Positions 15,756 through 56,521 of a stretch of 64,000 nucleotides of DNA are shown here, piece by piece. The notes under the pieces were generated by a model. The model was not told where the DNA came from, did not search any database, and saw only the letters and a program-made list of their open reading frames with translations. Location of the stretch: positions 62,001 to 126,000 of the forward strand of contig JAYWIR010000074.1 of the NCBI GenBank assembly GCA_036172245.1, written 5' to 3'. Each line of letters starts with the position of its first letter. Position 1 is the stretch's first letter. The position numbers and the translations under genes were made by a program. The stretch is from Raillietiella orientalis (taxonomy: Eukaryota).

Positions 15756-18620
15756 TGTGTCTCCAGCTGGTATTCGCCGCATCGTAAGACGCTATTACTC
15801 CTCGCTATGCGTGGAAGCGCCTACGGAAAATATCTTTTCGGAGATACTTCTGTCCCAGGATGCTCCCGTTGTTAGCGAAGAAGAACGCGTATGTCTCGAC
15901 GTGTCCTTCTCGGTAGAGGAAATTTCCTCGGCTATCGCGGGAATCAAGATACGAAAAGCACCAGGTAAGGACGGGCTATCCGCGGAGTTCTATCAGAGCT
16001 TCTCTGAGGAACTCTTCCCTCTGGTGCTTAGCCTCTCCTCGTTGATGAGGGTCTCGGGGGATGTCCCCAATTCCTTCTGCTCAGCGAGGATGCGTCTCCT
16101 GCCGAAAGGTGGAGACGCACGCCATCTCAACAACTGGAGTCCCACCACCCTGGTGAACTCGGACGTCCAGTTGTTCTCTAAGCTGTGGGTTTCGCGGCTA
16201 GGGAGAATCGCGCAGTCCTTGATAAGGCCGGAGCAGACTTACGCTGTTCCCGGGACGTCCAGGTACGCGAATCTCCTGTTTGCCCGCACCTGGATGCAGC
16301 TGCAGGAGCGCGTAGCGCAGCAAAGCCGATCCGTGTCCAAGGCCGCTGCCAAAGGCATACGGTATCGACACAAGCGGCAGAACGGTACGCCAGGTGCCTT
16401 GGCAGTCGCAGTAGACCTGCACAAGGCGTTCGATTTGGTAAACCAAGGGCTCTTATTAAAGCTCTTGGAACCCCTGGGTCTCCCGGCGCATCTCCTGAAG
16501 TACTTACGCGCTTGCTGGCGCCACGCGCTAACCTGCATTTCTTTTAGCGGCTGCCACGTGTACGGTATTGCCGTGCGCAGGGGCATCACACAGGGTGACA
16601 GCTTCAGCCCGTTGCTCTTCAGCATCTTCTTCGAGTTGGTGCTGAGGGCGTACAGGCTAACGCTGGAGTACCTGCCTAGCTCCTACCCGGGTACGCCTGC
16701 CGTGGCTGCCTATGCAGATGACCTGCTTTCTCTGCTCCCTGTGTCCACCCCGGCGTCCAGTGTCGAAGATTTTTTCGAACAGATTCGTCGGGGAGCGAGC
16801 GGGGGTGTGAACCTGAAGAAGAGCGTGGTCGTACCTGTAGGAGCATCGTGGATGGGGCATTACGACTAGATACGCCTCAAGATCCCCACGGCAGGGAATT
16901 TGAAGTATCTTGGTGTTCCGCTGGGTGAGAGCGGTTCTGCTGAGGCGTGGTCAGACTGCATTCCAAAGGTAGAGTTGGCAACCTGCCCGTTCACTAACGG
17001 CAAGCTCACTTTGCTGGAACGGGCAACTATTTTTAACACCTTCGTAATTCCCCTCCTTCGACCCCTGTTTTTTCTCTCGGATGTCCCCTACGCTGGCAAA
17101 GAGCAAGCAAAACTCCTGCTAAGGAACGCTTTCTAGGGTCCAACGCGATTCAGGATCAGCCTGAAAGACCTAGCAGCACCACGTCGGGATGCTGGTCTTG
17201 GCATCCTTACGATGGAGAGAATCGGACTGCAGGTGCAGTTTCGGATAATCGCACTGTGTGCCGAGCTATGGACTTATCCTCTCTGTGCGCCTCCGCGCAT
17301 ACTCCTAAAAAGGTGTGCAGGCTGTGAAGAACTTCTTCCCTTGGTGCCTGGCATGCGTCACAGGAAACAGGGATTTGGCCATCCTCTGAGGCAAATCGCC
17401 TTCCTATTGGATGACAATGCGTGGATTTCCTGATGCCCGATGAACTACAATGCTTGGCGGCAGGAATCTATTGATTCTTGGGCTGCATTCTTAGGAATGA
17501 GCCGTGAAGATCTCTAGCCCCTGCGTCGATTTCAACTTTGGTCCCACCAAGATGTAATGCAGGACACGCTGAAGTTTTCCTACCTAGCCGCCACGCCCCT
17601 CGACGAAGCACTCTCTGCACTCGAGGATGGAGATGACAGTAGCCAGCCTGTGAACTGGCAGTTCTCCTGCACCATTGCAGGAAGAACAAAACCAGTTGGA
17701 GAATGGGCCGCGAACGAGCTTGCGGATGCCGCCACTCCTCGTGCAACACCAAAGGGACTACTTCGGTGGAGAGAAGCACTAGGTGTTGCTCCCGAGGAAC
17801 TTACAATCCCTCCTTGGTGTTTGGACGGTTGGTGTTTACCTTTGCATGGAAGCAAGACGTCTTGCCGTTCTTGCACTGGGGCTTGCGCTACAACAAGCGG
17901 CGCCACCGAGTTTCCGGTGCGGTGGCTTCTCCCTACTGTGCCCGGTGCGGGGCGACGGAGTCGTTCCCGCACCTTTTTATGGACAGCGGTGCCCTCCTCG
18001 AACCCTAAAGGAGGCTAGCAGCAGCTCTCCCTCCTCCGGATGACACTGCTCGAGAAGTGCTGCGACGGTTCTTCCAGCCACAAGGACTATCGATGGCTGC
18101 GACGATTTCCACTGTTGGTTGCATCCACGCCATCGTCACGGTCCGAGACGTGCAGGAGAACACTGGACAGCAATGTTGTGTCACCAGGAAGGCAGCTGAA
18201 TTCATCAGGTCGGCTGCTGGGTGGCGACACATATATGAAGACACAATGGAGCAGCTAACCGGTATCCATCGCCGGATGAGCAACGGCTTAGAACGAAGAA
18301 CCCGGTGATCCGCCCTCATTTTATTTTTAATTTTGTTCTTTTCTCGCATCTTTTTCCCTATACACTTCGCAGTGGTTTTGGTGCTAAAACTTTTGACTTT
18401 AACAGGGACTGCACAGCGTCACCAAAGTTCCCTGGCCCACTCCTCCCATTAACAATTTTTTTTTTTTTTTTGGACTCCCCTCAGTCGTCCATGTTCTTCC
18501 GTTTTCCTGGTCTTCGTGCCAGTAGTGGAACTCCGCTGCATGTTTTGATAGTCCTGTGCTGGAAACAACTATTTCTAGCTCGTTTATATAGATAAACGTA
18601 CCGGCGTGAGCGGGTAAAAA
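15756..18620 (+). mobile_element. Element F (famF): 5'-truncated LINE, RT to 3' end
   Basis: ORF 15757..16869 has KAPGKDG, DLHKAFD, QGDSFSPLLF, YADD; CARCGATESFPHLFMD; stop 18308; terminal box gcgggtaaaaa 18610-18620. Confidence 0.95.
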
Positions 18621-20502
18621 ATTTCAACGTTCACTTAAAACCAAATCGGCAGAATCACGAGCGCAACCTGGTCAACGAGGTGTGCATGACGGTGCACACC
18701 TGTAATTTGTTGGCTAGTGCACCGGGAATGGAGGACAGTATCGACCACGTGTTCCTTGATCAGCATCTGTGCACTCGCGTGGGCAGGCGCGGCAAAGTAC
18801 CATGCGAGCTGTCCGACCAACGATAGTTCTCGAAATCCATCCGCGCGACAAGGACCCTCCTCGTCAGCGTTGCGTCTCCCAAAGGACTAACTGAAGCTCT
18901 TGGACGCGGCGAAACATCTCCGCACGTCCATACGGAGCATCAGACTACGGACACTCTAGGATTGGGACCGCTTCAAGCGGTCGCTCCAGGAGTTCTGCGA
19001 CCAGTTCCCTATGCACCGCCTACCTACGGGTTGCGGGACAGGGGTCCGCAACGAACGAGCCTATCTGCAAACCCGTCGTTACACCAGGACTTATAACATC
19101 CGCAGTCTGACTGAATACGAAACAGGAGCGGAGAGACAATTCTGGCAGTCCGGATCGGCCAGCTTGCAGGAGTCAGAAACACTCGCCACTCGCCCAAATC
19201 CGCGGCCTCCCGCGGAGATACAACTCCTCCCTGTATGCCAGAGTACCTTCGGAGAGGAACCTCTCACGACTCCTGCTTCCGGCAGGCGCTCCAGCGATCA
19301 AGGAGGAGCAGAGACAGACCCTCGACGAGCCTTTCACCATGCACGATCTCTTCTCGGCTATCGGAAAGCTCAAGAAACGCAAGGCTCCAGGAAACGACGG
19401 CCTGCCCGTGGAGTTTCACTAAACTTTCCCGGCTGAGCTTATCACCCTGGTACAACAACTCTCCTTGCTGATACGCGAAACAGGTGAGGTTCCCGCCTCG
19501 TTTCGTTCGGCAATGGTGCGCAATGCTGCTCCTCCCTAAGGGAGAAGATCTGAGGAGCATGAACAATTGGCGTTTCATCACAATAGTCAATCCGGACGCC
19601 AAGTTGCTAGCGCAGGTTTAAGCGGAGCGGCAGGGACGGGTTGCAAACGCCTTCATCAGATCGGAGCAGACGCCTGCTGTTGCCGGGCGAAGAATAGAGG
19701 CGAACCTGTTCCACGCTTTCACCTGGCTAGAGCTCCAACAAGAAAGGAGCTTGCTGCATAGCCGAAATTTTGATGCGTGCGCAGGCAAAGGGTCGGATGA
19801 TCGGGTGGGGGAGGGAGCCTTTGCGTTCGCAGTCGATTTGCGGAAAGCATTCGATTGCGTCGACAAGAATCTCCTTCTGGAGCTTCTGGAACGCTTGGGA
19901 TTTTCGGTTTCTTTGCTGACCTACCTGCGATCCTGCTGGCGCGACGCGCTCATCCAGATATTTTGCAGTGGACACACCGTCCACGGCGTACCGGTGGGAC
20001 GTGGCATACGGCAGGGAGACAGCCTGAGCCCCCTGCTCTTCAGCGCCTTTTTCGAATTGGTGCTGAGAGCATACAGGGAGACTCTTGCGCACCTTCCGCG
20101 CGATTGTCCCGGTACGCCTGCGGTTTAGGCATACGCGGACGATCTTCTGCTACTGATCATTATGTCCACCACGGCTTCGGCGGTCGAGGAGTTCTTCGAT
20201 CTGCTGCATCGGGGAACCGGACTTATGGTGAACAGGGCGAAGTCGTCCGTGATGCTAGTTGGTGCGGCGTGGGCAGGGAACCAGGACTGGGTCCGTCTGG
20301 GGATTCTTACGGCGAGGTACTTAAAGTACCTTGGTGTGCCGTTGTGGGACTACTCACCTGCGGAAGCGTGGTCCGGCTGCCTTCAGAATGTTGATACGGC
20401 TATCGGCCCGTTCCGAGGCGGCAGGTTTTTCCTGCCTGAACGGGCCGCGGTTTGGAACACGTTCGTGGCTCCTCTCCTCTGCCCTCTGCTTTTTGTTTGC
20501 CA
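18621..20502 (+). mobile_element. Element G (famD, N-type APE): internal ORF2 fragment from APE (D)FNV to LLFVC
   Basis: Starts atttcaacgtt, matching N 58702; DLRKAFD, QGDSLSPLLF, YADD; many stops. Confidence 0.9.
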
Positions 20503-21578
20503 CACGTTCGAACGGTAGTGCCTGGTTGCAGGAAACCGTTCGAACGTGGGGACAGTTCGGAATGCAACGCTCCCCACAGGGACGAAGGTTCCTGTTTGGA
20601 GGTTACAGAAGTTGCACGCTTTGTGAGTTCCTGGAGGATCCAAAGAAGAGAGCGTGGGCATGAAGAACCCCCCTTGCTGCCGCGCTGCCCTACCTGATGG
20701 AAGATCTGGACAGCGATGTTGCGGCGAAGTGAGAGGTTACAGTTGCAATCTTCGGGAAGGAGAAGAAGATAGGAGAGTGGAAGGCGGGTTAGCTATCTGA
20801 CGCTGCCACCCCGAGTATGCCTTCTAATAGACTTCTTCGCTGGGGCGCGCTGCTTGACGTTCCCATCGAATGTCTGAAGTGGCCCCGGTACATATGGACA
20901 CCTTCACTGTCCCCTTCAAATGGCAGTAGTTGGCTCTCCTGGTGCGGCACTGGGGACTCTTCTGCAACGCCTGCCGACGCCAATGGACCTGTGGAACGGT
21001 GGACCTCAATTGCGTCCGGTGTGGGGAACGGGATTCCCTTCCCTACCTGCTTTTGGATCGTGTTGCCCTTTGGCCCCTTTGATTCCGCTTCGCCGCGGCC
21101 ATTCGAATCCCCTCCGACAACCCCAGGGACGCTCTGAAATCCCTCTTCGTTGCCGACGCCCTTTGGCCAGCGGCCTTGTTAGCAGCCCTGTTCTGCCTAC
21201 GCGGGATCGTCGCCGCCTGGAGCAAGGCTACGGGAGGACCACACGACCAGGGTGTTATCCAGCCAGCCTCCGAATTCCTGAGGAGGGCGTCGCGATGGCG
21301 TCACCCGGATCCAAGCATACAGCATGAGCTTGCCGGCATCCTGCAAAGGATGGAATGGCTCCACTAGCTACAGTGATCCCTTCCTGGTCGATCTCAATCA
21401 TTCTTTTCTTTTTGTTTTGTTTCTTGTTTTTTTCCTCTTTCCCCCTCCGCCGTGGTGGACCGTACCTTTCTGCGAACTCTGTGTTTCTTCGTTCGTTGCT
21501 GGGCAATGGTCCAGCCACTGCACTTCTTTTTTAAAGTTTATTGTTTCTGTAAAGGCCCCAGGAAAATCCGGGGGAAAA
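20503..21578 (+). mobile_element. Element H (famH): 3' part of a LINE
   Basis: Collinear with element O (62430-63519); zinc-finger remnant; terminal box ccgggggaaaa 21568-21578. Confidence 0.9.
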
Positions 21579-22095
21579 TCGAACGCCTTATCGTCTGCGA
21601 GCGCTAGGGTTCCCTTCCCCTCCCGGGGATACGTTTCCAGCCCGGCATGCGGCCCCAATGTTGGGTTGCCGATTTTTCCTTTCCCTTTCTATTGTCTCCT
21701 CTGCAAGTGCACCCATGTGCTTGCTAAGAAGAGGTTGGCATCCATACTTTGCCCGGGAACAACATTATTCTGCTCCGGGCTAATTACGGTTTCTGTTACC
21801 TGTCCCAGACGCGAAGCGCGTCGCCCTGCTAGAAGCTTGTCGTCCGTATTCACGATGGTGATCGGACGCCAGTTCTTTAAATCTCTGAGGTATCCCCCTT
21901 TCGGAAGAAGCCTCACTCTGGCTGACCGAAACGAGGCGGGAACATCGCCTTTGTCTCCGATCAGCCTTATCAACTGAAGCAGCAGGGGTGCCAGCTCTTC
22001 CGCGAAGCTCTGAAGGAACTCCGCGGGCAAGCCGTCTTCCCCTGAAGTTCTACGCTTCTTGAGATTTTGATACCGGCGAGAATTTCGTCGCTGGT
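21579..22095 (-). mobile_element. Element I (famC): internal RT fragment from TSDEIL to KAFD
   Basis: ORF 21689..22120 (GLPAEF, LLPKGG, NWRPITIVN) is nearly the same as C and L. Confidence 0.9.
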
Positions 22096-24630: not shown

Positions 24631-27600
24631 TAAGGAATTCTTACTTTGCATTAAGTTGGCATTAAAGAATGCACAAAAATAAGAAAAAATTAAAGTTTTC
24701 TCTACAGAATGGATTTGAACATTTCAAGTTGAAATGCATTTTTTATTTTCGCAAGGATACTTAGAAATTCAGACCCCTGTTCTCCTGGATCAATCTACCT
24801 AAAATTTTGACTTTCCAAACGAGTGTGTTTATGTCTCTGTGAAGACTAGTGAATGGGTATTCGGAGGTTACCAGAAAGTAAGTAAAGTTACCGGTGGCCT
24901 GGTATTGGTTGCGAGGATGAAAAATGAACAGTTGGTGTATTGATATCAAACGCATTTTTGTACATTAAGAGGTTTTGGTAGAAAAGCTGTAAGCTTGAAT
25001 AAGTTCTACAGTTGAGTCCATGGCATCAAGTGGGAATTAGGGTATGAGGATGATGGGACCATTTTAGAATGCCTAGGAGAGAATTTTTTCTGTGGTGGTG
25101 ATGATGAAACGATGTGGGTTGAATTTTGAGATTTGTGCTTCTATGAGTGAAGGGAGAGGAAATGATGCGTTTCGTTTCCACGTTGCGTGCATTGGATAAG
25201 CCATATTGCAGAAATGTGATGGATGGAGATAGTTGTATGGAAGGTCGCAATGGGATGGTAAATCAGAAAGGTTCGGAGAGGAGAGTAGGTGCCGAGAATG
25301 TTTATGTGCAGATGACAGGAGACAAGAGGGTCCAAAACAGAGCAACGAAGACATTGGGAGATACTTCAGAGAAGTCATCGGAAAGAAGAATCGCTAACAG
25401 ATTGTCTCTGCTCACCTGAGTGGTGTACGCAGGGCGCACGAAAACTTGCCATCGCCCCTGGAATCCCGAGATGAAAATAACTTGGTGAGAAGGAGTGGAT
25501 TTATGCCGTCGTGATCCATCAAAAATTTTTCTTAACTACTTCCTTCAGAACACATTCGTTGCGACAATTCTTTCAATTCACCGTGAAGACGCCTACGATG
25601 CATCCTCTGTGGGAAGTATGGAAGCTCCAGGAGACATGCTTGCGATGTTCTACCTGCATGATCTGCAGGAAAGCTCGCACGTTTCAAGTGGAAACTCGAA
25701 TTGGGAGCATATCGTTGCAAGAACTGAGGTGCCTGCTGCAGTAGCCTGACTCAGCCGTTGTGATTTCCTGAGTGTTGTTTTCAAACCTGGCTCCGAACAC
25801 ATGAGATTACTGGAGACGCATCCTGAAGTTTATATTCACCCACAGTTCTAAGAGTAGTCCACGTACGGCTCAAACTTCTGGCTCATCTCAAGATTGCAAT
25901 TCTGAGTATGCAGGCTCAATACTTTACAGAAACACATAACTTTGGTTGTTTTCAAGTGTTACAAAAGCTAAAGCACTTATGATTTGATTTCGCAGATGCA
26001 ATTCCAGATTGCATACAAAAAAGCAGGAGAAGGTAGAAAGCGCTCATCTTAGATTTAAATGAAACTCAAGAAATTTGAAAGCAATTATTCTCAAGTTTTC
26101 TGTGCAGATTATGATCACCATTCGCATACAAGTGACACAAGCTGCAGCATTCGCCTTTCTCGTAACAGTTCACGTATTTTCGGAGATGCTCGGCAGCAGT
26201 GTAGGGCCGTGACTGCTTCTGCATCGCGGATGTTATCCTAGCTGGTCAGCTTCGTTCCCTTCCGTCCATTCATTCTTCGCTATTGAGCTGCTTGCCTCAG
26301 GCTGCAGATTCTGGAAACTCACCCATCGCCGCGTGTGCTTTACAACGGCGAAGCCTCGAGTTCGCTCCCCATTCATCGAGCAATGCGCTGTGCTTCTGCC
26401 GAGAAATATCCTTGTAGGGAGCCATCAGTTAAACTCATCTGAAAGCTTTCAGTAACAGTACTGATTTCTGTGCATGAACAGGTCAGATGATCAGGTGACA
26501 TTTGACTCGCATGCACCGCGCTTGCGACCTGGCTTTAATGTGTGCACTGCAGTTCGTGAGGACAAGAAACGAAAGACACCGACCTAATGGTCTTACGTTT
26601 GAAAGCTCTGCTGATTGATGGGCGTCTTTGGTGGTTCCTCTATTTTAGGAAATGAGAATAAATGAGAACGAAAAACTGTTTATTTCTTCACTACAAAGAA
26701 AAAAATGATAAGTCTTTCTCTCATTATCAGTTGCTTGCATGGTATTCTTCGGGAGCGTATTATACGAAGTCTACACGAAAGGAAGCACCTGGCGTGAATT
26801 CCAGCCAGCATGAGGAGTGTTTATTGAAACTGCACGTTACACTGAACGGAGTTATTATTGACATGTGATCGTCCAACTCTATGACGGAACTGGAATAAAT
26901 AAAGTTAGGGTTATAATGAAAAACATGAACTTTGAAAATGAAGGCTCTCTATGAATGGTAGTTTATGTGCTTTTATTCCGTGAATTCTGTGAACGCAATG
27001 GATGATTCTCATGAGAAGTTTGGATTAGGGCTTTAACATTTGCGTCTCTGGAACTGTGTTGAGATCAAGAAAAATTGTTATGTGCAGTTTGCCACCCCGA
27101 GCCACCCAATTAGGTTGATAATCGTTGCGAGGCTCCATTGCCTTGCAAGTTTATCAAAGGTGATATAAAAATCACGAAAAGACAACATCGTTGATCATCG
27201 ACATGCTTTTATGCCTTTCAAAATGCGGAAGATGGAAAGCACCGAGTTGCGCGTTCATACTGTGATGAAAATCGCATTTAGACGCAGCACAGATGTCCCC
27301 GTTTGAATTGCATGTCGTATTTGTGAGGGAACTAAGCAACGTCCAGTCTTAGATGCCGAAATGGAGGCAAAGCACAGTCTCTTACCCAACTATAGGTGTG
27401 AATGTGCAAGTAGTGTAACAGGGAGTTCCCATTAAGGAAACTTTAACATACTGCGGGAATCCGTCGTCAGTCTGACAAAATCGATATGGCATTTCTCAGA
27501 GCGTATTGTCATCTTACCGTGAAATCGATCGAGCATCGTTCGGTACGGTCTGTTCTCCATAAATTAGGTCCCCATCGTAGCTTGCAAGCATCCAGAGACG

Positions 27601-29530: not shown

Positions 29531-29977
29531 TCAGCCGGTGGGGTAGTGGTTCTTCCGAATGGAGGGAGGTGCGGAAAGAGCTAAGAGCCGAGGAGCGGGG
29601 GAGCTGGAGAACGCTGCAACTCCACATTCTCGGGCAATGGGATACGCTCTGGTGGTTGGGAATGTTGAGTCGTGCTCTATAAGAAGCGCCTTTTCACCAG
29701 GTTGTGCCCGAGACTCCAGCGTGTTTCTCGCCCTCCCTGTGGCCGATCCCCCAGGGTGAGCAACGGCTTTTAATCCAAGAGTGACCACGATAGCGAAAAG
29801 AGGTTTTACATTACGGATGACCCTTGAACGTGAATAGACTCTGATGCAAATTTCAACAGTTGGGCCTGACGGATTCCCTGTAGCAAAAATCGTAACGGAG
29901 ACGTCTCCAGGAGCAGAGGTTGCTACGCCGAGCAGGGATAAAAACATGAGCTCGCTGATTAGAAGTTTTTTGTCCAT
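29531..29977 (-). pseudogene. Possible start of a host secreted-protein gene or pseudogene
   Basis: ATG at 29977 gives MDKKLLISELMFLSLLGVATSA, which resembles a signal peptide; no recognisable domain. Confidence 0.25.
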
Positions 29978-39310: not shown

Positions 39311-39342
39311 AAAATCCGGCTTTAGGACTAAAGCCGGATTTT
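39311..39342. repeat. Perfect 15-bp inverted repeat with a 2-nt spacer
   Basis: aaaatccggctttag-ga-ctaaagccggatttt. Confidence 0.95.
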
Positions 39343-40713: not shown

Positions 40714-41520
40714 GATGCGCGCTCTCGATGTGAAAGAGGAGGAGCTCAGCGCTATGACCATCCGCAGCGGAGGTCAGTACGTTGAGGTCATCTGCAAACA
40801 AGCAGAGCTGGACCAACGACTGCTAAAAACCCCTGTGGTGATAAGGACGCGCAGGTTCCTCCCTATTACGGCGGACCGCAGCATGGTGGTCCACCTGTTA
40901 GGTGTTACCGCGCGGATGCGCAAGGAACAGGTTCCCGCCGCGTTGGAGGAATACGGAACGGTCCACGCGCAGTGGACGAAAGTTAGTCCTTTCGAGGACT
41001 ACACGGAGCTGCAACACATCCTCACTGCTGCGCGCGTGACCGTTCGGGAGGGCTGCACTCATCCCCACAAACTGGTGGTCGAAGGCGGAACCGTCGACCT
41101 CTGGTATGTGGGGAAGCCGAAATACTGTGGCTTCTGCAATACGTCGGGCCACCTCAAAAAGAGGTGTCCCAATGTGCAGTGCCAAGTATGCGGAACTATG
41201 GGACACACGAAGGAGGTGTGCCCTAAAGCAGCAGTGCGGGTGGTTTCTAAGAGAAAAATTAAAAAACGTGCCCGGCTTCTGCAGAAAAGGCTGGCGGCGA
41301 AAGCTACCGCGAAGGCTGTGCCACCCGCGCCCAAGGCCCAGGTCGCACCCTAGACCCCGGCGAACAACGCCGAACAAGTCGAGGGAACTAGCCAGGAGCC
41401 TGGGTGGCAGGTGGCTACGGCCAAAAAATCAAAGAAGAAGAGGAGGATGGAGAAAAAGCTCGCGTACCGCCAGAAAAAACAGCAGGCAAGCGAGCAAATT
41501 AAAAAATGCAGCGTTGTCGT
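40714..41520 (+). mobile_element. Element Q (famD, N-type ORF1): ORF1 fragment, outermost element of the right cluster
   Basis: ORF 40715..41353 has CGFCNTSGHLKKRC and CQVCGTMGHTKEVC; closely matches N 56873-57675. Confidence 0.93.
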
Positions 41521-43965
41521 TTATTACTTGGTTTCGCCGGGACGTTTATTCTTAATATCAACTGAGAACTGTGTTCCCAGGCAAGGGGAACTGAAAATGA
41601 AGAGTAGATTTCCCGACACGCAGGCCGGGTGCACTGAGATTTCGGAACGATAGGGGGTGGGACAATAGATAAATACATTGGGTAGGAGGGCGGGGATAGG
41701 GGTATACAGTCTATCCGTTCCTGTTCTCAGAACCATCGGTGAATGCCGCCGATCTCCGTCCTCACTTCTGCTTGCAGGTGTGGGAACCCGGCAGCCATTT
41801 GCAGGCTGCAGGCTGCGGTCTCGGGGACGAATGCTGGGACTGCTCGTATCTGCAATACGTGGCGGGCCCTGACAATGGCGCGGACGCAGCAGATGATTAC
41901 GACGATCGCTCCAAGAGAAAGTCCGCCACGCGTGTAGAAGCGGCGCATCCAATCCAGTGCGGTGTGTCCGGGGTGCAGGAACGCTAAAGACAGCCCCTGC
42001 CACAGATCCTGGAGGGCACTGCACTCAAACAGCAAATGCTGAAGCGATTCCACAGCTCCGCATTCGGCACAGTTCGGGGACCCAACTCTCCCGGAAATCA
42101 GGTGCGCCCGCTTGTTGCAGTACAAACCCCAATGCACCAGCAGAAAAGCGTCCTGCTTCCACCGAAGGGGGAACAGAGTCGCGTTTAAACACGCAGAAGG
42201 GACCACAAGTTCATCGGTGGGCACCCCGAGGAGCTCACTCCACCGGAGAAGTCCCTTGGCACGAAGGCGTAGTGTGGCAGCGTCTGGCACTTCGCAAGTC
42301 CGCCAGCCGCCCAGCAGTCGGGTATCGCCTGCGATATCGCAAGTGATCTCTCACCTCCCTGGCAGGTCACTGTCCTCTCGCACCATTAGTGCACACAGTG
42401 CTTCGGCGAGTGGCGTAGCGGATAACCGTGTCCACTGGTCCTGGTCTACCAGCACCTTTCCCACAGGACAGTATGGATAAAGATCAAGCAACGGAGTTCT
42501 AAACGGGACACATCCTGTTGCGCTGCCCAGGACGATAAGACTTCCTGCCTCCAGGCGTAGAAGTTCGTCGGCCGGCAGTAGATCCACTCATGCTTCCGCA
42601 GAAGCGTGGCGAGCCGCTTCTAAGGGAAGCCGAATCCTCTCTGGGCGCGCTCCGTGCGCAGATGAAACGAACGTAGCCCGTAGCCACCCGTGCAGCGCCG
42701 CAGCAGCAGCCGCGCTGCAGCACACCAGGGAGTAGTATAGAGCTGCGAACAAAGTGCCAGCATGCGGTACTGAACAAGCAGTCCGATTTGCTCCAGCGTC
42801 AGGATGCGAAATCCTGCATCCCGCCGAGGAGCCGCCAAGACCATCACACGTATCCTGGACCACGCCGGTCCCCACAGGGCGTTCCGCAACAGGCGTTGCG
42901 CCCGACGCTTAGCCAAGTAGGGAGAAGGTCAAACAAAAAAGAGGAGAAGGAGGAGGGGGCAACGAAAATGTTATACACGAAGGCCCGTTCCGACAGGAGA
43001 AACCTGCCGCCTTGGAATGGGCCAAGAGCAGTCTCGGACTACTGAAGGCAGTTCGAACACGCTTCTGCTGGACGCAAGGCGCCCAAGGGAACGCCGAGGT
43101 ACTTCATGCACCTGCCCGTGGGGAACCCTAGGCGTATATAGTCGGACTGAATCTCTCACGTAAATCCAACCGGTACAACGGTTGATTACGTCCTGTTGAA
43201 GCTCAGGCCCGCTCCCCGACGAATGAGCTCGAAGAAGTCCTCGAGCCTGGACGCCGGGGTGGACATGGGCAGCAGCAGGAGAAGGTCGTCAGCATAGGCG
43301 GCCACGGCCGATGTTCCCGGGCAGGAGCTCGGCAGGTTGGCCAGCGTCAGCCTGTACGCCCTCAGCACCAACTCAAAGAAGATGCTGAAGAGCAGGGGGC
43401 TTAAGCTGTCTCCCTGCCTGATACCCCGCCGTATGAAAATGCCGTACACGTGGTGCCCGTTGAAAGAGAGACAGCATAACGAGTGACGTCAGCAGGAGCG
43501 CAAGTAGGCGATGAGGTGCGTTGGGAGGCCTAGGCGTCGCAGAAGCTCCAGAAGGAGGTCCTGGTTTACACTGTCGAACGCTTTGCAGAGATCGACGGCG
43601 ACCGCTAAGGCTCCTGGCGTTCCATCGTGCCCTGTACACCGCCGCTTACCTTTGGCAGCGGCGATTTTGGCTGCCTGCCTCTGCTGCACCACGCGCTGCT
43701 GCAACTCGAACCATGTTCGCGCGAAAAAGAGATTCGCGTCCATGGGCCGCTTCGGAGAAGCATACGTCTGCTCGGGACTTACCAAGGACTCCGCGATTCT
43801 CCCCAGGCGCGCGACCCATAGCCTGGAGAACAACTTGACGTCCGAATTCACCAAGGTGATCGGACGCCTGTTGCTGAGGTGGCGCAAATCACCGCCTTTC
43901 GGCAGGAGTCGCACCTTTTCTGAGCGGAAAGAAGCGGGAACATCTCCCGTCTCACGCATCAGCGA
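41521..43965 (-). mobile_element. Element R (famF-like): RT to 3' end, inserted antisense into ORF1 of Q
   Basis: DLCKAFD, QGDSLSPLLF, YADD, CAECGAVESLQHLLFEC; degenerate terminal box ccaagtaataa at 41521-41531. Confidence 0.93.
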
Positions 43966-46895
43966 CGGTCGCGTACGGACGTGCTTTTGCGTCGCTCCGC
44001 GGTAGATTGGCTCTTGTGTGTTTTTGTTCTGCTGTGCTTCTGTGCTGCAATGGGAGCAAGGAAGAACATCAGCAGCAAGGGAACGCCACCTGCTCCTGAG
44101 ATGGCTGCTTCGGCTGCTAGCAAGGAGCCTCTGTCCTCGCCGACGGCGAAGACATTCGCTCAGGTCGCTGCCCTAGCGGCTACGATGGAACCTTCGTCCG
44201 AGAGCCCTGAGCTTCAGGCGTATGTAGCAAATGGCTACACGCCTGCACTCAGGTATAAGTTAAGTGTCCTTATGCCTGAGCGGGTTGGGCGCGAGTTTGG
44301 CCAGGAACCACAACGGATTGGAGTTCAAAAAGGCCAACTGGAGTCCATCATGCCCATGAGTGGGTGCGGATACTGGGAGGTGTCAAGTAAGGACGCTCTC
44401 CTTACGCAGCGTTTGCTGCACACGCCGCTGCTCATTCGTGGGCAGGAAATACTCCCTGTCACAACGGACCAGTCGTTCGTTGTCCGGCTCAGTGGGGTGT
44501 GTAAGGGCCTTTCGGACCGCCAGATCGTGGAGGCCCTTGAAAAATTCACTACCGTCCACGCGCTTTGGAGGCTGCCAAACCCTGCTGAAGGGTTCGAAAA
44601 CCACCACAGCGGGCTCGCGCAAGTGCGAGTGAGGATGACGGATCGCCGTGCAATGCCCACGCGACTGCAGGTGGATGGAATGACCGTCCGCCTGTGGTTT
44701 GCCGGGCAAACGCGTGTATGCCCGGAATGCGGGCAGGAGGGTCATTGCATTACGAAGTGTCCCTCGGCCACTTCTCGTTACTGCCACGAGCACGGGCACA
44801 CTAAAGGAACGTGCTCGGAGCTCCTTTTAAAAAACGAAAAGCGCAGGAACGAATCGCGTTCCGCATTGCGTAATAATCGCCGCGAATCGAGAGAAAGAAA
44901 CATCAAAGCTCCGAAAAGCGTTGCGAAAACCGCGACCACGCACGTGCAGAAAACTGTTTCTCGCCCCCACAAAGAAGGGGTGGAAAACACAAAAAAACTC
45001 GTCGCGGCAAAGCCTCCGGCTATCGACCCGAAGGAAGCTCGCGAAGAATGCGACCTTTCTACGAAACCTCGCAGCCAATTGTTGAATGCAGAAGACATTG
45101 TGTCGAAGGTCAAAAAGCCTCCTACTTTCGGCATCACGACCGCGAAGCCTCCTACCAAGGCCTCGACGAGCGGCGCAGAATGCGGTTGTTTGCCCGATAC
45201 GGGAAAAACGCGCCCGCGAGCAAAGAACACCGCGCTGTCTGAAGCTACCGCGGCCAAGGTGCCCCAGGCGCCGAATGCTGCGAAGAAACAGCCGGCAAAC
45301 CCGCAGTACTCGCGCGCTGATGCAGCGCCTACTGCGTCCAAGGAAGAAACTGCTAGGGCGAGCACAACCGTTACAGCAGTGCCCCCAACGGTCGCAAAGG
45401 CAACGCGCGAACCCTCCTATCTGGAAGAGGCAGCGCCTCTCGCGATCGCTAAAGTTGTTGCTCACGCCTGCGTGGAGGCAGCACTCCAAGAGGCAGCCAA
45501 GGCAACGCCTCTCACATCCGTGGAAGCAGCGCCATCTCAGGATGGCAAAGATAACTGCGACGCGAAGGAAGACGGCTGGATGCAGGTGAGAAAGATCATT
45601 AAAAAGAAACCAACCAGGTCTTCGCAGCTCTGTGTAAAGGCGAGTGGGCAAAAGCAACCAGCGAAAGCATTCCAGAAAAAGATTGCGATTCTTTCCCCTG
45701 CGCAGTCGTCCTCTGGAGGATGGAGCGGGAAGCTGCTGCAGGGGCTAAAAGGACGAAAGTCCCAGCCGCAGTAGCAGAAAGCGCTAGAAAACATGCAGCG
45801 AACGATTTCCCTAATTTAGGGAAACAGCAGCAGCGCCTGGCAAGCCCTCGACTGTCGGATTCTGATCCAGAGTTCGCCAGAAAGAGCACACAGAGCGACA
45901 ACCGCCCGAAACCGCGCAATCGCCACCCAAAGACCCGCAAGTGCGTGGTTGCCGAAGAGGAACAGTTGCTAAGGAGCAAAGAGGAGAAAAAGGACCTCAC
46001 CTCTGAGCTACCGGCAAAAAGCAGTGCGGCTTCGAATGGAGATGTCCAGTCTCCGAGATCGACCGCTCTGTCTCTTGACCACTCTCCGGACAAGGCAAGA
46101 AATCTGTGCTCACCTTCAAAGCCTTAATGCAGGAAGTCGCCTCTTTTCGTCGATTCAGCGTAGCCTGCTGGAACGTCAATCGGCTGCGCAGGGACGAAAA
46201 GAGGCGCGACGTGTCAGACACCCTGCGACATTTCGATTTGGCGATCCTTCAGGAGATGCATTACATATCCGATGCGGAGGTAGCGGAAATCGAACAGCGC
46301 GCGGATGGCACCCTGTACTAGCGAAAAGGTACTGCACAATCGTGCGGAGTCGGTTTCCTCGTCAATAGAAGGATGGCGGGAGCGGTGCGCAGCGTTCGAT
46401 TCGACCAGGAAGGGCGAATGGGCCAACTTGTACTCAAGTGGTCAGATTCAATCGACCTCGTCGTAACGAACGTCTACGCGCCGAGCGGTTTTCATCGGCG
46501 TGTCGAAAGAATCGAGTTCTTCGACGTGCTGGAGAGCCAATGGCTCAGAAACTCCGAAGTCAGAGTGGCGCATCTCGTCGCTGGAGACTTCAACGTCCAC
46601 CTTCTTTCCAACGAGACGCGGTCCCTGGCGGAACGGTCGCGGGTGGAAGAGGCATGCGCGTCGGTGCGCGCGCGTAACTTGGAAGCCGGCGAGCCTGGAC
46701 TGGAAAGGTGCGTGGATCACCTCTACCTCGATTAACACCTACTCTCTCCAGTGGGAAGGAGAGGCAGGGTGCCGTCCACGTTATCGGACCATGATAGGCC
46801 GGAGTTCGAGCTACTCCCGCCTGGCAAAAGACCTCCAAACATTGTTTGGAGGATACCGGCAATTTCTCTGAGTCACTCGGAAGCGGCGAAGCATC
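43966..46895 (+). mobile_element. Element J: 5' half of a LINE (leader, long ORF1, APE)
   Basis: ggacgtgctttt at 43977; ORF1 from ATG 44050 with CPECGQEGHCITKC; TAATG at 46125-46129; APE WNVN, QE, NVYAP, GDFN, VDH, SDH. Confidence 0.93.
44050..46127 (+). pseudogene. ORF1 of element J (zinc knuckles, long Lys/Ala/Pro-rich tail), frameshift near 45730
   Basis: ORFs 43981..45774 and 45720..46127; stop overlaps the ORF2 ATG. Confidence 0.85.
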
Positions 46896-48420: not shown

Positions 48421-51013
48421 ACTCCGGATGCAATTGTTGTGAGCTCCGTGGATAGGGAGTTTTTTGTCTGGAGTTTCGTGTGTGTTTCGCGGCCGTTGAC
48501 AGGCAGAAACGCCTGTGAACGCCGCAGTTTTAGGTGAGGGATGCGGAAAGACCGCGTCTCCCAAGCCAAAGGAGGTGGGATCACGTCCAATTACTACTTC
48601 TGTACCCGCCACTACGGCGAGGGCCTGGAGTGCGTTGGCAGCGGCGGAAGCGCCCGATGTCTCCGCCGAAATCCAATCCTACATCCAGGAGGGCTACAAT
48701 CCGGAACTCCTGTACAAGGTAGGAAATTTATATCCCCCGTTAAGGGCGCGAAAGTTCGGCAATGCCATCAAAAAGATGGGCATTACCGACCATGAAATTC
48801 TTTGCCTGTCAATACGAAGCGGAGGGCAGTTGGCAGAGCTTATCTGCAAGGATCCAGCTCTTACCCACAAGATGCTCTGCACGCCCGTACAATTTGAGGG
48901 CAGGAAATTACTCCCACACACGGTGGATTACTCCATTGTGGTCCACATAACTGGGAGAACAGTGCGGATGGAAGAGAACGCCATCCGCGCTGAACTGGAA
49001 AAATTCGCTAGCATTTACGCGATTTGGAGAAAGCCCAACACCTTCAGAGTGACTGGTGCATTTAGTGGGCGAGTAGGCGCGCGCGTGACGCTTCGAAAAA
49101 GCGTACAGCTTCCCCACAAGCTCTAAATTGTCAACGAGTTCGTCGACATTTGGTTTGTGGGGAAACCTAAATTTTGTGGAAACTGTAAGTCGTTCGGGCA
49201 TTTGAAAAAGCGGTGCCCGGACGCGGTTTGCCCAACGTGCGGCGCGAAGGGCCACACCAAAGTGGTGTGCCCGATTAACGTCGCTCCAATGCCGGAACTT
49301 CCGCAAAAGAAGGAAGGGAAGGCAAAAATAGTGATAAACCCCATAAAAGGGGATCAGACGTCGGCTCCGACAAAAGTCGCGCAGCAGGAAAGGGACTCGG
49401 TACAGGAGCTCCCGGAAAAGACTGCCGACGAGGAAGGCTGGCAGCTGATCACCCGTAAAATAAAAATCATTAAAAAAACCGCGCCCGCACCGGCGAAAGT
49501 GGTGAAGGGCAAGTTGAAGATCGCGCCACGCCCAACAATCAAAGCGTGCAGCGTGGCCATGAAACGCGTGCCGGCGATTGATACTCGCTCTGCTGACGGA
49601 TCGTTGCGATGTCAGGTCATGTCAGCTGTTCAACCCGTCGCCGCGCGAACGCTGACGCCTCGACAAAGTCGTCAGCCCATCTTGAGAAGCGACGACCGCG
49701 ACTTCAATAAGGCAGCGGAAGAGTTGGCAGCCATGCTCCAGCAACCTCCCAAGGCCGAGAACAAGACCTTGAGGCGTCGGGCTTTCGCGAAAGGACCGGA
49801 GACTTCCGAGTCCGAAGCCGAAGCCGGCAATGGTATGCCTGTCGCTCTAACGAAACGCAAAGCGGGCTGCAAGGTAGGCAACCCGCGGCGCTCCACACAT
49901 CCACCGGCGGAAGAGGAAATGCGGTCGGACCACGACGACAAGGAGGCGATGTCCGCGAGGTCTCGCCGCTCCTCGCCGGAGACGGCTTTGGCCAAGCAGG
50001 ATCCTCCAACTACCACCACAACCACCGACGGACCGCCTCCTTGCGAGAAACATCCCGTCGCAATGCACACAATACTCCCGCCTGCTGAACAGCAGGCGGA
50101 GGACGGTAAGCAAACACCATAAACACACCAACGCGTGGACTCTCCTCCTGCCGGCGACTGCGCGTAATCTGTTGGAACGTCAACGGGTTGCCCGACGACG
50201 GCAAGAGAAGAGAAGTGGCCGCCAGCCTGCGGGACTTCGATCTGGCGCTTCTGCAGGAGACGCACGTGCTCCACGCAGAGGACGCCCAGGAAATCGAACG
50301 GACCGCAGGCGGGCGGCTCATATACGAGAACGGGAGAGACCGCACCCGCGGTGTGGCTTTCATGCTGAAGAAAAACGTCGTTAATGCGCTGCGCGACGTG
50401 CACTTCGACGGGGTTGGTCGAATCGGGCAACTTGTTCCCAAGTGGTCCGACGCGATCGACCTCGTCGTAACCAAAGTTTACGCGCCCGGCACGAGCCACA
50501 GGCGCGGGGAACGCACTGCGTTCTTCGAAGGCCTGCGGCGAGATTGGCTGGCCGAAGCAGACATGCGAAAGGCGCACCTCATTCCCGGGGAATTTAACGT
50601 CCGCCTGCTGGCAGGTGCGCCCGACATTCGCGCACAGCTGGTCAACGAGATGTGCGCTGCCATGCACGCGCGCAACTTGTTGGCCGGTGACACCGGGACG
50701 GAGACGAGGATCGACCACATGTTCCTCGACAACCACCTGTGTTCGCGGGTGCGAAATCGAAGGGTAGTGCCAATTGAACTTTACGACCATCCACGGCTCG
50801 TGCTAGAAAAACACCCGCGCGGTAGAGGTCCACCCTCCACAGCATGGCGTTTTCCAAGGGACTAATTGCGCCTCGCAGGAGCAGCGCAACATCTTCGCTC
50901 GTTCCTGCAAGGCTTCCATCTGCAGTCGCTCGCGGACTGGAACGACTTGAAGAGCAGAGTCCGCGAGTTCTGCCACCAGTTTCCCCTGAACCGTCTTCCT
51001 CCAGGTTTCGGCG
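48421..51013 (+). mobile_element. Element K (famE): 5' half of a LINE, cut at LPPGFG by element L
   Basis: ORF1 48515..50122 with knuckles; APE 50188..50865; homologous to E. Confidence 0.94.
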
Positions 51014-54000
51014 TTGTCACCCGGGTACCCCCGGGGCATTTATTTGTAAACTTTACATGCGTGGTACGAGGCCCCACCACGGCCGTAAACAGAGGACCTG
51101 TCGGGACACCGGGACGCAGCTCGGCGTGGCACTCCCCGACAGCGAAGGGAGTTGTGGATAAGACAAAAAGAAAAATAAAAAGAAACAAACAAAAGCAAGT
51201 TGGAGGGCAGGGAAAAGATCACTGGTCGCTGTGAGGAAAGTCCATATGTCGAACGAAGCCCTTGAGGTCTGTCTGCATATTCCCCAGTTAAGGCCATTCG
51301 GCAGCTCTTCGCAAGAAGCGTTGGGCATACGGGATGACATCCCTTGCATGTGGACCCACTCTTACGTTGTTGGCATCCCTCCATGCCGCCACGATGCCAC
51401 CGACGCAGCACAAGGCTGCGATGGCTGCGGCTGGCTGCAGTGCGTCCTTCACGAAGAGAAGTCGAAGAACGTCTCTGGGGGTGCTGCCCGTAGGGAGCCC
51501 GAGGGTCGTCCCGAACCGTTCCCAAAGGGGTCGGAGGGCAGCACAATCCACAATAATTTGGGGAAGCGACTCCCGCTCCCCGCACCTTGCACACGCAGCA
51601 TCCACAGCTCCCCTCGTCAAGTGGAAGCGGCGCGGATTGCAGGGTAGACCCCAGTGCAACAAAAGCAACGCCGACTCTTACCACTTGAGGGGCAGGATCC
51701 TGGATTCTTTCATCACCGGGGCTACTTCAGCTCATCTCTGGGGATGGCGAGCAGCTCGTCCCATATTACTAATCCTTGCGGCTGGACGCTTGGGGTCTTG
51801 GCGTCGGTCAGTTCTCCTGTTGTCCAGACGCTAATCAACTTCTCGCGTCCCTCGATGCAGCAGGAGACTTGCCACCTTGGCGTCCGGCTGCTGTGAAGTG
51901 CTCTCCTCAGGAAGGGCAGCGCCGTAGCTAGGCAGGTTGTCTCTGCCCACGTGCATCTTGCTAGACTCTCCAGGAGATTCCCCAGAATGCAGCGGACGTA
52001 GGAACTGCATTGGAGACGATTAGAAGTTTCGTGGCTCCTCCGATTAACCACTGCCCACGTTCCAATATTCTCCTCCAGCCAGGCGGGACAGTTGGCAGGG
52101 CAGCAAACCATCCACCTGTTCTCCTTGGCCAATGTTGCCATGCGTCCGAGCACTAGGCCGCATCTTCGCGTCTTCCGGCCACGGCTCAGAAGAAAATACG
52201 CAAGTCCATCGCACCACGACAACCGGCTGGCCAGGAGGCTGGCCGGAGTGCACCAAGGGGTGCTCCACATCTTCGCTGCGATGTCGAGGGTTAGCCACCG
52301 CAGCTGCTTCTCCACGCGCTCCAGAGTCAGGACGCCAAGACCGCCGTCCCGACGCGGTGCGCACAAGTCCTTCAGAGGGACTCGGGGCCTCCTCTTGCCC
52401 CAAAGGGCGATACGGAGGAGGTTCTTTGTCCTCTTCTTCGATTCCACGGTGAAGGGGGCAAACAAAAAGCAAGAAGCGGAGGATGAAGGCCGCGAAGGCG
52501 TTCAAAACCGCGGCTTATTCCAACAAGTGAAACTTGCCTTCCAGGAACGGGCCGATCGCCGTCTCGACTTTTTGGAGCCAGCTGGACCACGCTTCTGCAG
52601 GGGAGTAGTCCCCCAAGGGCACACCAAGGTACTTCAAGCACCTCGCCGTGGGGATCCCCTGACGGACCCAGTCCTGCAGCCCGGCCCACGTTGCACCTAT
52701 TGGCACAACCGACGACTTCGCCCTGTTAACCTAGAGTCCGGTCCCGCGGCTGAGCAGATCGAAGAAGTCTCCGACTGCCTTTGCCGTGGTGGACATAGGC
52801 AACAAGAGCAGAAGATCGTCGGCGTACCCAGCTACTACAGGCGTGCCTGGGCACGAGCTCGGCAAGGGGGTTAAAGTCACCCTGTGCGCTCTCAGCACCA
52901 ACTCAAAGTAGGTGCTGAAGAGCAGGGGGCTGAGGCTACCTCCCTGCCTTATGCACCGCTGCACCGGCACGCTATACACCTTGTGACCGCTGAAAAAGAC
53001 GGTAATCATCGCATTCCATTAGCGAGAGCGCAGGTAGGAAATCAGGGAGAGTGGAAACCCCATGCGACCCAAAAGCTCCAAGAGGAGTTCCTGGTCTACA
53101 CAGTCGAACGCCTTGTGGAGATCGGCTGCAAGCGCTAGGGCCCCATTCCCCGTCCAGGGGTATCTTAACAGCCCATCTGGCGGCCCCAATGTTGGGTTGT
53201 CGACTCTCCCTATCCCTTTCTTCTCTCCTCTCTGCATGTGCACCCATGTGCTTGCGAAGAAGTGGTTGGAATGAATACTTCGCCCGAGAACAGCATAAGT
53301 CTGCTCCGGGCTAATTACGGATTCTGCCACCTGCCCCAGACGCGAAGCCCATAGCCCTGCTATCAACTTGGTGTCCGTATTCACGATCGTGATCGAATTC
53401 CAGTTCTTTAAATCCCTGAGGTCTTCCCCTTTCGGAAGGAGCCTCACTCTGGCTGACCGAAACGAGGCGGGAAGATCGCCTTCGTCTCGGCTCAGCCTCA
53501 TCAACTTAAGCAGCAGGGGTGCCAGCTGTTCCGCGAAGCTCTGAAAGAACTCCGCGGGCAACCTATCTTCCCCTGGAGCTTTACGCCTCTTCAGCCTTTT
53601 GATACCGGCGAGAATTTCGCCGGTGGTAAAAGGCTCGTCGAGGCTTTCCATCTCCTCCTCCCCTATTGCCGGGGCGCCATCCGGAAGCAAGCGCTGAGAG
53701 GCGTCTCGATCCGGGGGCTCCCTGGCGTAAACGGAGGAATAGAAACTCCGCACGAGATGCCGTACCGACGCCGGGGACGAACATTCCCGGCCCTGGTGGT
53801 CCAGCAAGCTGGCCGACTTGGATTGCCAGGCTTGGCGTTCGGCCCCGGCGCGGTACTCGGCCAGGCGACGGACATTAGGGGTTCTTTCGTACCAATGAGC
53901 CTGTAAATTGGCCCGATGGTTGCAAGGATCCTTGCCGAATCAGGCAAGCAAGTGTTTTAGGGGGAGCTGCTCCCAGAACTCCCGGACCGAGGCCTTAAAA

Positions 54001-54355
54001 AGGGCCAGAACCGTAAGATTCTGGAGCGTGACGCCTCTCAGAATTTGCAAAGGTGTTCCTTCGCATCTGACAGTCGCTTTTAGTCCCCCGAAAGACGCCA
54101 ATCCCTAAATAACGGTCCCTTGTCGCGAGGCCGCATCTCGGAAATTAGCCAAGAATGGTGCGACAGCGTCGACGCAATCTTCCTACATTTGCCGACCCGT
54201 GAACATAGGTCAGCTACGGGGAAGAGTGTGGTCGATGCTGCAGTCCATTCACCTCTCTCCCTCGAACAAGTTGCGCGCACGCATGGAGGCGCACAACTCG
54301 TTCATCGCGTTCTCTTGTGTTTCTGGCTCACCTGTTAGCAGACGGAGATTGAAAT
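51014..54355 (-). mobile_element. Element L (famC): ORF2 from APE (D)FN to 3' end
   Basis: ORF 53019..53807 (KAPGEDR, DLHKAFD), YADD, zinc finger; terminal box 51014-51024; closely similar to C. Confidence 0.95.
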
Positions 54356-56521
54356 TTATCACCCGGTCACGCCTCGGCGTTTATTAATAATAATAAACTG
54401 GTCAGACACAATGTCCTCAACCAACAGAACGACAGAGAACATAGAAAAATTACCGGCACGCAGGCGTGGGAGGAATGAGGGGAAACAATCAAAAATCAAA
54501 AACTGGAGGGAAGGGTAACAAATTTTTGGATAGGCTCCGTACTCACGGGGATTTATACGATGAGCACCTGAAATTTTCCGGAGCCTATAGGGACGCGGGT
54601 GTAAAATGAAAATACAAAATTAGTTCATGGAGGGTGAGGCAATGATCACCGGGTTGTCCGCTGCTGAGGGTGTGTAATCAGGCGGTGTATTGCGGCGAGA
54701 TTCCTTTTTGTCTCTTCTGTCAAATGAGGTTATCTAACGCATGCTCCTATATAGAAGGATGCTTTGCTGATTACCTCTTGGTGCTGTCCGTTGATTGCCA
54801 ACGCCTGGCGGACGGAAACTATCGCGCGTTTGCAACCGATGGTTGCAATCCTTGCGCTTAGGGACAGCCCGCTCGGCGTGAAGAACCGTCGCAGCAAGTC
54901 TCTTGCGCTGTCCACGGGATGCATTAGTGCTGTTGCCAGCCTACGGCACAGTCCTTGTAGGACACTGCAGTCCAGAAGTAGGTGCGGAATCGACTCCGAC
55001 GATCCGCACCGAACGCAGTTCGCAGACGTAAGTCCCCCGGAGTCACGATGCCAACGCTCGTTGCACTGAAAACCCCAGTGAACAAAAAGCAGCACGGCTT
55101 GTTTCCAAGCAAGGGGGAGCAGCGAACTGTCAATACACTGTGGAGGGACTACAAGTTCTTCGGGGGGGGCAGCAAGTTCTTCTGCCCACCGGAGGAGTCC
55201 CTTTGCAGTAACACGAGGAGTGGCGGCGTCCGCCTACTCACTCGTCTTCCAGGCGCCAAGGAGTTTGGTTTTTCCCGCTATCGTGCAACTCGCCGGTAAG
55301 TAACTGTCGTTTCTCGCCCTGCGGGCAGACAGCGCTGCGGCAAGAGGCGTGGCAGCCAGAGTAGAAAACTTCACCTCGTCCTGCAGTACTTCTTCCAAGG
55401 ATCGTGGAAAATATTGGCGCAAAAGGCGAAGATCTTCAGGGCGTATTTCTTGGAACGCCGTCCAGGATTCAACAGACTCCTGCCGCCCAGCTTGAAAGTT
55501 CATTGGGCGGCAGGAGATCCACGAGTGAGCTTCCAGAAGTGCGGTCAACTGCCGCAATGGAAACCGAAACCCCGCTTCCTGTATTGAGTGCCCGGCAAAA
55601 GCAAGAGAAATCCTCCGCTGCCGTCGCATCTCCGCAGGAGAATGCCAGCTGACACACACAGAAGGGATGTCCATAGCTGGGCACACAGTGCCAGCAGTCG
55701 GAACTGCACCTGCAGTCCGATTCGCTCCATTGTCAGTAAACCCAAAACAGCAGCCCAACGCGGAGCTAACAAATCTTTAAGGCGGATCCTGGATCTCGCC
55801 GGACCCCAGAGAGCGTTCCTGAGCAGGCGTTTAGCCCGCTGTTTCGCCGTATAGGGGGACTCCAAAACAAAAAACAGGGGACGGACGAGCGGGGCCACAA
55901 AGGTGTTCTAAATAGTCGCCCGTTCCTGCAAGGTGAACTTGCCGTTAAAGAACGGTCTGATGGCCAAATCTGCTTCCCGAAGACAGTCCGCCCACGCTTT
56001 GCCTGCGCCGAAAGCACCCGACGAAACGCCAAGGTACTTGAAGTACCCGCCCGTAGGGATCCCCAGGCGGATCCAGTCGGACTGCCCCTCCCACGACGTA
56101 CCCACAGGAACGATCGCGCTCTTCTCTCTGTTCACGCTCACGCCCGCTCCCCGACGAATCAGGTCGAAGAAATCCTCGACACTGGACGCCGCGGTGCACA
56201 TGGGGTGCAGAAGAAGCAGGTCATCAGCGTAGGCGGCCACGGCAGGCGTTCCCGTGCAGGAGCTTGGCAAGTGAGACAGCGTCAGCCTGTATGCTCTTAG
56301 CACCAACTCAAACAAGATGCTTCATAGCAACGAGCTTAAGCTGTCGGCCTGGCGGATGCCCCTACGAACGGGAATACCATACACGCGGCAGACGCTGAAA
56401 GTGATGCAGTCTAGCGCGTGGCGCCAGCACGCGCGCAAATATCAGCAGGAGTTGCGCCGGGAACCCAAGGCGTTCCACATGCTCTAAAAGCAGCTTCTGG
56501 TTTACGCGGTCGAACGCCTTG
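54356..56521 (-). mobile_element. Element M (famF): 3' half (KAFD to 3' end) of an element whose upstream part is P
   Basis: YADD (55908..56315), CVRCGSSESIPHLLLDC; terminal box ccgggtgataa at 54356-54366. Confidence 0.93.
56510..56521. repeat. Target-site duplication, left copy
   Basis: tcgaacgccttg versus tcgaactccttg at 63520-63531. Confidence 0.8.

Follow-up and report, generated by a model that had tools for sequence, protein, structure and literature searches.

Long interspersed nuclear elements (LINEs) that insert at one defined site are known for ribosomal DNA, telomeres, small RNA genes and one DNA transposon. Those with an endonuclease of the apurinic/apyrimidinic type (APE), such as R1 and TRAS/SART, join their 3' end to one base of a multicopy target, and Tx1L lands in the Tx1D transposon. 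The L1-type LINEs Zepp and ZeppL of the green algae Coccomyxa and Chlamydomonas target copies that are already present and so build up centromere-like clusters, nests in which most elements are 5'-truncated (PMC8226300, PMC3446292, PMC9940879). Here we analysed a nest of LINE copies in 64,000 nucleotides of the Raillietiella orientalis genome (NCBI GenBank assembly GCA_036172245.1, contig JAYWIR010000074.1, positions 62,001 to 126,000 of the forward strand; this whole stretch is referred to as the window, and all positions are counted from its first base). Within it, the 3' ends of two elements of one family, famF, lie in the same codon of two other LINEs, namely the Asp codon of the endonuclease motif GDFN.

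About 20 related, nested non-LTR (LINE) fragments occupy both strands of the window at 1-24.6 kb and 40.7-64 kb. They were mapped through Pfam matches of their open reading frames (ORFs) and through tblastn queries with the proteins of N (56405-61693), which is the most complete copy. The Pfam matches were zf-CCHC, Exo_endo_phos, RVT_1 and zf-RVT, and the elements comprise an ORF1, an APE endonuclease and a reverse transcriptase (RT); both enzymes are encoded by LINEs of the window (Exo_endo_phos, RVT_1). All copies are decayed; roughly counted, they have 1-6 stops or frameshifts in each kb. A tree of RT residues 175-630 resolved five families with 100% bootstrap support at each fork: famF=(J,(F,M)) at 100/100, in which F and M are sisters, famQ=(A,(H1,Q2)), famG=(G,R), famD=(N 3' part, D) and famC=(C,L). 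Element R, which the earlier note had called famF-like, thus belongs to famG. The diverged families share 65-75% identity with one another. The closest RT in the databases is 64% identical, named relatives are generic L1-type proteins at 20-29% identity, and a metagenome scan with the RT alignment returned five loci, all 22-32% identical and too distant for a comparison of flanks. Full-length elements carry the motif GGACGTGTTTT at their 5' ends.

The first of the two famF elements, F (15760..18620, + strand), is a 5'-truncated copy that extends from the linker through the RT to the 3' end. Its terminus ...GGGTAAAAA at 18620 is followed by G (18621..21578, +), a famG host that begins at the A of the GDFN GAT codon (residue 182 of the N endonuclease) and runs to its own 3' end; across the junction 18620/18621 the sequence reads ...GGCGTGAGCGGGTAAAAA and then ATTTCAACGTT. 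On the minus strand, M (54356..56523) is the 3' part of a second famF element, MS, covering RT residue 147 to the 3' end. It terminates with ...GGGTGATAA at 54356 and adjoins the famC host L (51013..54355, -), which starts with ATTTCAAT, again at APE residue 182, and continues to its 3' end (junction 54356/54355, ...GGCGTGACCGGGTGATAA and then ATTTCAATCTC). The 5' continuation of M is S (63521..64000, -; famF, RT residues -5 to 152), which is cut by the window end, and the 5' end of MS lies beyond base 64000, outside the window.

Both downstream hosts start with ATTTCAA, inside the GAT codon of GDFN, and at both junctions insert and host lie on the same strand. We refer to this position as J1. 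It is intact in N (GGC GAT TTC AAC, 58698-58709), in frame with the APE ORF 58158-59561, and the homology of G and L to six copies with an intact J1 (N, D, B, E, P, Q1) begins at one column. Because of an A run the junction is ambiguous by 1-2 nt, always within the GAT codon. The same register and the sense orientation that the earlier note had described for both junctions are borne out. In exonuclease III structures the counterparts of VAGDFNV in N are ICGDFNT and IGGDYNI; the Asp of GDFN is catalytic in the APE/ExoIII family. The left sides of the J1 junctions are true LINE 3' termini, because all 13 LINE 3' ends of the window share one tail, ..AAA(C/T)Gnnnn(G)GC(G/A)Tnn CCGGGTGRNA plus 1-2 nt. 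Poly(A) is absent from all 13 of them, and 12 of the 13 are adjoined by other LINE sequence.

The two J1 junctions are two independent events and not copies of one, because G is sister to N (100/99, 84% identity in a tree of APE residues 182-330) and L is sister to B (100/99, 71% identity in the same tree), with N and B both uninterrupted at J1. A forced G+L clade costs 90.9 log-likelihood units (lnL) and is rejected by the approximately unbiased (AU) test (p-AU 8.7e-81). That the hosts come from different families, as had been proposed, is supported by the APE tree, where they form separate lineages. The identity of G to N is 82.4% over 1894 nt, and that of L to C is 89%. No conversion tract was found at J1: identity does not increase toward the junction, with 22/30 to its left and 16/30 to its right (hand count). 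The nesting order is reversed as well: famF lies inside famG at 18620, and famG lies inside famF at 56524-63520.

Junctions that coincide to the base recur at other positions of the nest. At J3, the famG 3' ends of G (21578/21579) and R (63520/63521) are followed by CGAAC(G/T)CCTT, the antisense of ..KAFD, which is RT motif A of the hosts H2 and S. These hosts differ in family: S goes with famF, and H2 (21579..22094, -), a famC-like fragment of RT residues -18 to 147 that is cut at the J3 base by the 3' end of G, goes with famC (85% identity to L). An S+H2 clade is rejected (98.6 lnL, p-AU 1.4e-40). One J3 event is preserved on both sides. Element O (56524..63520, +) is a full-length famG element lying antisense in MS at RT motif A, and M and S flank it with a 13-bp duplication, CGAACGCCTTGCG (56511-56523) and CGAACTCCTTGTG (63521-63533), identical at 11/13 positions. 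Removal of O and of one copy of the duplication gives a single reading frame ..AVDLHKEFDRVNQKLLLEHVERLGFP.. across the joint. O in MS is thus a case of target-primed insertion that is complete: the host is present on either side, and 13 bp of the target are duplicated.

Within O, the 5' part N (56524-60569) is followed by a 5'-truncated famD fragment (60570-62052) and by R (62053-63520). N is accordingly a mosaic, famG-like to 60569 and famD from 60570 to 62052 (92% identity to D), and R begins at the base homologous to the start of the famD fragment. We read this position, J5, as a sense insertion of a 5'-truncated famD copy into the famG element O, homology having resolved the 5' junction of this copy. 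The geometry, an insert 3' end followed by the host 3' part on the same strand, is that claimed for J1, here with the host 5' part retained. Near the corresponding point of other copies, G carries an internal deletion of 355 nt (20504/20507) about 20 nt downstream, and Q2 starts 19 nt upstream.

At J2, three 3' ends lie antisense in their hosts at one point of the APE-RT linker, where the host reads ..GG(A/T)T(T/A)CGG(C/A) up to the junction. The famC element C (4654..7673, -) adjoins host B (+, ends at 4653) at 4653/4654; the full-length famD element D (7690..13201, +) adjoins host E (-, 13202-15675) at 13201/13202; and L adjoins P (48422..51012, +), a host 5' part from ORF1 to APE residue ~322 that is cut by the L 3' end at 51012/51013. 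The inserts C and L are 89% identical, versus 68% for their hosts B and P. At least two of the three J2 events are independent, because the host tree ((L,B),(E,P)) is incongruent with the insert tree ((C,L),(N3',D)).

Counted by family, 3' junctions at one target nucleotide comprise 2/3 for famF, 2/2 for famG, 2/2 for famC and 1/2 for famD. The 13 3' junctions form 78 pairs, and with ~12,000 position-by-orientation states for a 6-kb host about 0.007 coincident pairs would be expected, versus six seen (one at J1, three at J2, one at J3 and one of the 5'-end class); this expectation is our own rough estimate and not the output of a tool. On that estimate a chance origin of the coincident junctions is negligible. 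Exact repeat landing sites are supported as a general feature of this nest, and one of them carries a target duplication. The pattern across lineages fits a heritable site preference with occasional switches, with F and M at J1, J elsewhere, C and L at J2, and G and R at J3. The evidence base throughout is one 64-kb window with 2-3 events per site.

We consider it probable that target-primed reverse transcription brought these LINE families into other LINEs, where they favoured particular nucleotide positions. For J1, the famF endonuclease would nick a resident LINE on its antisense strand at 5'-..GTTGAAAT^C-3', after GAAAT (^ marks the nick); the predicted target duplex is ..GCAGGCGATTTCAACGTT.. 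The free 3'-OH would then prime reverse transcription of the famF RNA, whose presumed end is the conserved tail ..AAACGnnnnGGCGTnnCCGGGTGAYAA without poly(A). A new famF copy in sense orientation would result, splitting the GAT (Asp) codon of the host GDFN motif, and this would have happened twice, with F in the famG host G and MS in the famC host L. The site preference could stem from the famF endonuclease itself or from read-through flank RNA that guides priming. The missing host 5' halves would be lost in the case of G and would lie beyond base 64000 in that of L.

A wider reading is more tentative. Several LINE families may form a guild in which each has a heritable, nucleotide-precise landing site in the coding sequence of other families, so that they parasitise and disable one another; we regard this as possible, with less confidence than the insertion mechanism itself. 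Among the sites of such a guild would be the Asp codon of the endonuclease motif GDFN, motif A of the RT and the linker between APE and RT.

Several observations weigh against site-preferring target-primed insertion. Neither J1 event shows its 5' junction or a target duplication. Upstream of F lies an unrelated flank, x (an 82-nt famQ tail) and E on the other strand, and therefore a deletion or a further insertion must be assumed. Within the window famF itself comprises an RT only (15748-16866, RVT_1 2e-13), and no famF APE/endonuclease sequence was found there. The third famF copy, J (41521..43974, -), has its 3' end ...GTAATAA at 41521 and adjoins K (40709-41520), an N-like ORF1 with 90% identity to N. 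J is antisense in this ORF1 and not at J1, so that only 2/3 famF ends are at J1; its flank is ACGACAACG, also given as ACGACAACGCTG. Occupancy of J1 is 2/8: N, D, B, E, P and Q1 are empty, although N and B carry the identical ATTTCAAC. In favour of a site preference, the J site and J1 (G, N, B) have a partial nicked-strand motif in common, CGTTGnnnT^C, with 7/11 positions matching, and all three famF flanks start with A; against it, a further 12 intact copies of this loose motif in the window are unoccupied. No nick motif common to the four recurrent sites was found. At J2, the other halves of hosts B and E are absent from where simple nesting predicts them. To the same side of the balance belong the J2 hosts B and P, which carry fewer disabling mutations per kb than their inserts (B 1.9 vs C 4.1, P 1.1 vs L 3.5), the reverse of what nesting predicts; these counts are small and region-biased.

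Since J lands elsewhere, the specificity of famF for J1 is not absolute. The survey of famF flanks, which the earlier note had set beforehand as a test of its proposal, was accordingly divided, with F and M at J1 and a different flank at J. What stands of the proposed sequence-specific targeting of an active-site codon is the recurrence at the same base in independent events; absolute specificity does not stand. Nothing indicates that the catalytic codon as such is what is recognized: J1 is only moderately conserved at the nucleotide level, and J2, another recurrent site, lies in a poorly conserved linker. In percentiles of nucleotide conservation, J1 ranks at 84-92, J3 at ~80, J5 at ~90 and J2 at 21-50. 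A general rule that the targets are the most conserved stretches was likewise dropped as only partly true, given the J2 linker.

As age proxies, disabling-mutation counts had a mixed outcome, and all of them are rough. Apart from J2, the values per kb fit the nesting, with L 3.5 >= MS 2.9 >= O ~2.4 >= famD fragment 1.6 in one half of the nest and G 4.15 vs F 2.4 in the other, the latter as expected if F is the younger.

Four other explanations of the J1 junctions were weighed against target-primed insertion of famF. The most serious of them, which we nevertheless consider unlikely, reverses the order of events: G and L would be the newer elements, primed at the half-sites that H2 (J3) and P (J2) had kept, beside a resident famF copy, and the truncation at the GDFN codon would be the way in which the G or L cDNA end was joined to the famF tail. 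G and L do end at the sites of their own families, J3 and J2, and such an order of events requires no extra deletion for the missing host 5' halves. The famF tail CCGGGTGAT is also similar to GG(N)GAT, which in the host immediately precedes the junction, and with 2.9 vs 3.5 disabling mutations per kb in MS and L, M is not clearly younger than L. But the extra AA(A) of the famF tail is kept, which leaves a usable microhomology of only 1-2 nt, and this cannot fix the same base in two ~6-kb elements of different families. Moreover, re-use of half-sites would give famF three different targets, and the 2.4 vs 4.15 disabling mutations per kb in F and G fit F as the younger partner. Less probable still is a chimera made at the RNA level, in which an RT, having copied host RNA as far as a fixed 5' end or a break at the GDFN codon, switched to a famF RNA at its 3' end, so that F+G and M+L would each be one integration. 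End-to-end template jumping of this kind would match the tail-to-head joints with full-length 5' ends (Q to P and x to E), and mosaic elements such as N exist. Against it, nothing hints that the APE coding sequence holds a processing site in two different families, and Rfam at gathering scores gave 0 matches in the window, thus no ribozyme or other RNA family. In addition, the antisense junctions at J2 and J3 together with the 13-bp duplication at J3 speak for insertion at the DNA level in the same nest, and template jumping could not produce such antisense junctions.

The remaining two we regard as very improbable. A single ancestral composite might have spread through segmental duplication or through retrotransposition with read-through (3' transduction); in its favour, nucleotide identity in the RT regions is similar, ~73% for F-M and ~74% for G-L (inverted repeat I4). 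Yet the G+L clade that it requires is rejected as given above, with G grouping with the intact N and L with the intact B. Flank clades that exclude uninterrupted copies were found neither at J1 nor at J3 (p-AU 8.7e-81 and 1.4e-40), and the nesting order differs between the two halves of the window. Equally hard to sustain is a chance coincidence or an assembly artefact, even though the region is highly repetitive: assembler jumps join homologous positions and not a 3' terminus to an internal codon, and four classes of exact recurrence, one of them with a target duplication, are far beyond chance by our rough estimate. Target-primed insertion of famF at a preferred position thus remains the reading that we favour.

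Some joints of the nest concern the order of its elements more than the landing sites. Elements meet head to head on opposite strands at C/D (~7673-7690), x/F (15759/15760) and J/Q (~43967-43975). The head-to-head joint of M and N at 56523/56524 is explained by the insertion of O, whereas the other three are not so explained. Tail to head, a famQ 3' end meets a P/E-type element at its full-length 5' end, twice and in one register, once where the 3' end of Q (48421) precedes P (48421/48422) and once between x and E (~15676/15675). End-to-end template jumping, 5' transduction or a landing site at famQ tails are possible causes of these two joints, and they may also go back to common descent, since both sides diverge alike. 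Of two attempts to reunite separated fragments, one was rejected and the other found no support. E and C do not form one element split by D, as their overlap of ~96 nt shows only 61% identity (36/59, hand count) and E groups with P and not with famC. That B and F are halves of a single famF element parted at J2 is not supported: compared with N, B lies closer to famC and F farther from it, and the two have no overlap for a direct comparison.

The LINE 3' terminus itself (for example 4654-4700 on the minus strand and 62010-62052 on the plus strand) consists of an AATAAA-like element, a stem ACGCC/GGCGT, a palindrome-like CCGGGT and GRNA(N); the famQ variant of this 5-bp stem contains a UA pair. 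RNAalifold gave no convincing 3' hairpin, and the 5-bp stem, which was named by us, was 81.5% paired with one compensatory pair, a weak result. Upstream of the APE of element Q, a 616-aa open frame at 43924-45771 (+) is without a Pfam match and without a repeat elsewhere in the window; it is probably the ORF1 of Q. Some 200 unassigned nt (1721-1920) separate A, with its 3' end at 1720, from the 5' motif of B (~1926). The two parts of the nest are separated by a block of ~16 kb (24650-40700) with a G+C content of 45-50% vs 54-60% and without repeats within the window. None of its 13 tested ORFs had a Pfam match, and a single weak RT similarity was seen at 32980-33529.

If the fixed recognition of one LINE by another is real, it would explain their clustering and supply a base-resolution mechanism by which self-targeting nests of the Zepp kind build themselves. 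It would also represent a competition among retrotransposons that acts directly on catalytic motifs, and would offer new natural endonuclease specificities for study. In the full-text literature and in the passages on Zepp and ZeppL, in a search that did not extend to the original Zepp papers and supplements, we came across no account of several LINE families that land at fixed bases within one another's coding sequences. Nor did that literature, or the passages on Zepp and ZeppL, yield a description of the rule by which LINE-in-LINE nests grow.

Compared with site-specific LINEs, the elements of the window resemble R1, TRAS/SART and Tx1L in encoding APE and RT, in joining their 3' ends to one target base in independent copies and, as seen for the famG element O, in a short target duplication. 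They differ in that their targets are coding sequences of other LINE families (APE GDFN, RT motif A, APE-RT linker), used in either orientation, with a low occupancy (2/8 J1 sites) and with one of three famF copies elsewhere. Insertions of LINEs into LINEs that are resolved by homology and leave mosaics find their counterpart in the famD fragment of O, which starts at the base homologous to its insertion point and creates a mosaic ORF, behind which the displaced 3' part of the host continues; at J1, in contrast, the 5' end of the insert is not at the homologous point, as F starts in the linker. As in Zepp nests, LINE copies of the window are inserted in one another and mostly 5'-truncated. Zepp 3' ends carry poly(A) tails, whereas those of the window end in a conserved GC-rich tail without poly(A). 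The passages on Zepp and ZeppL describe no target at the level of nucleotides; in the window, unlike in the Zepp nests as presented there, members of several diverged families (65-75% identity) have entered one another at defined bases. The window is best read as a Zepp-like nest with nucleotide-level sites.

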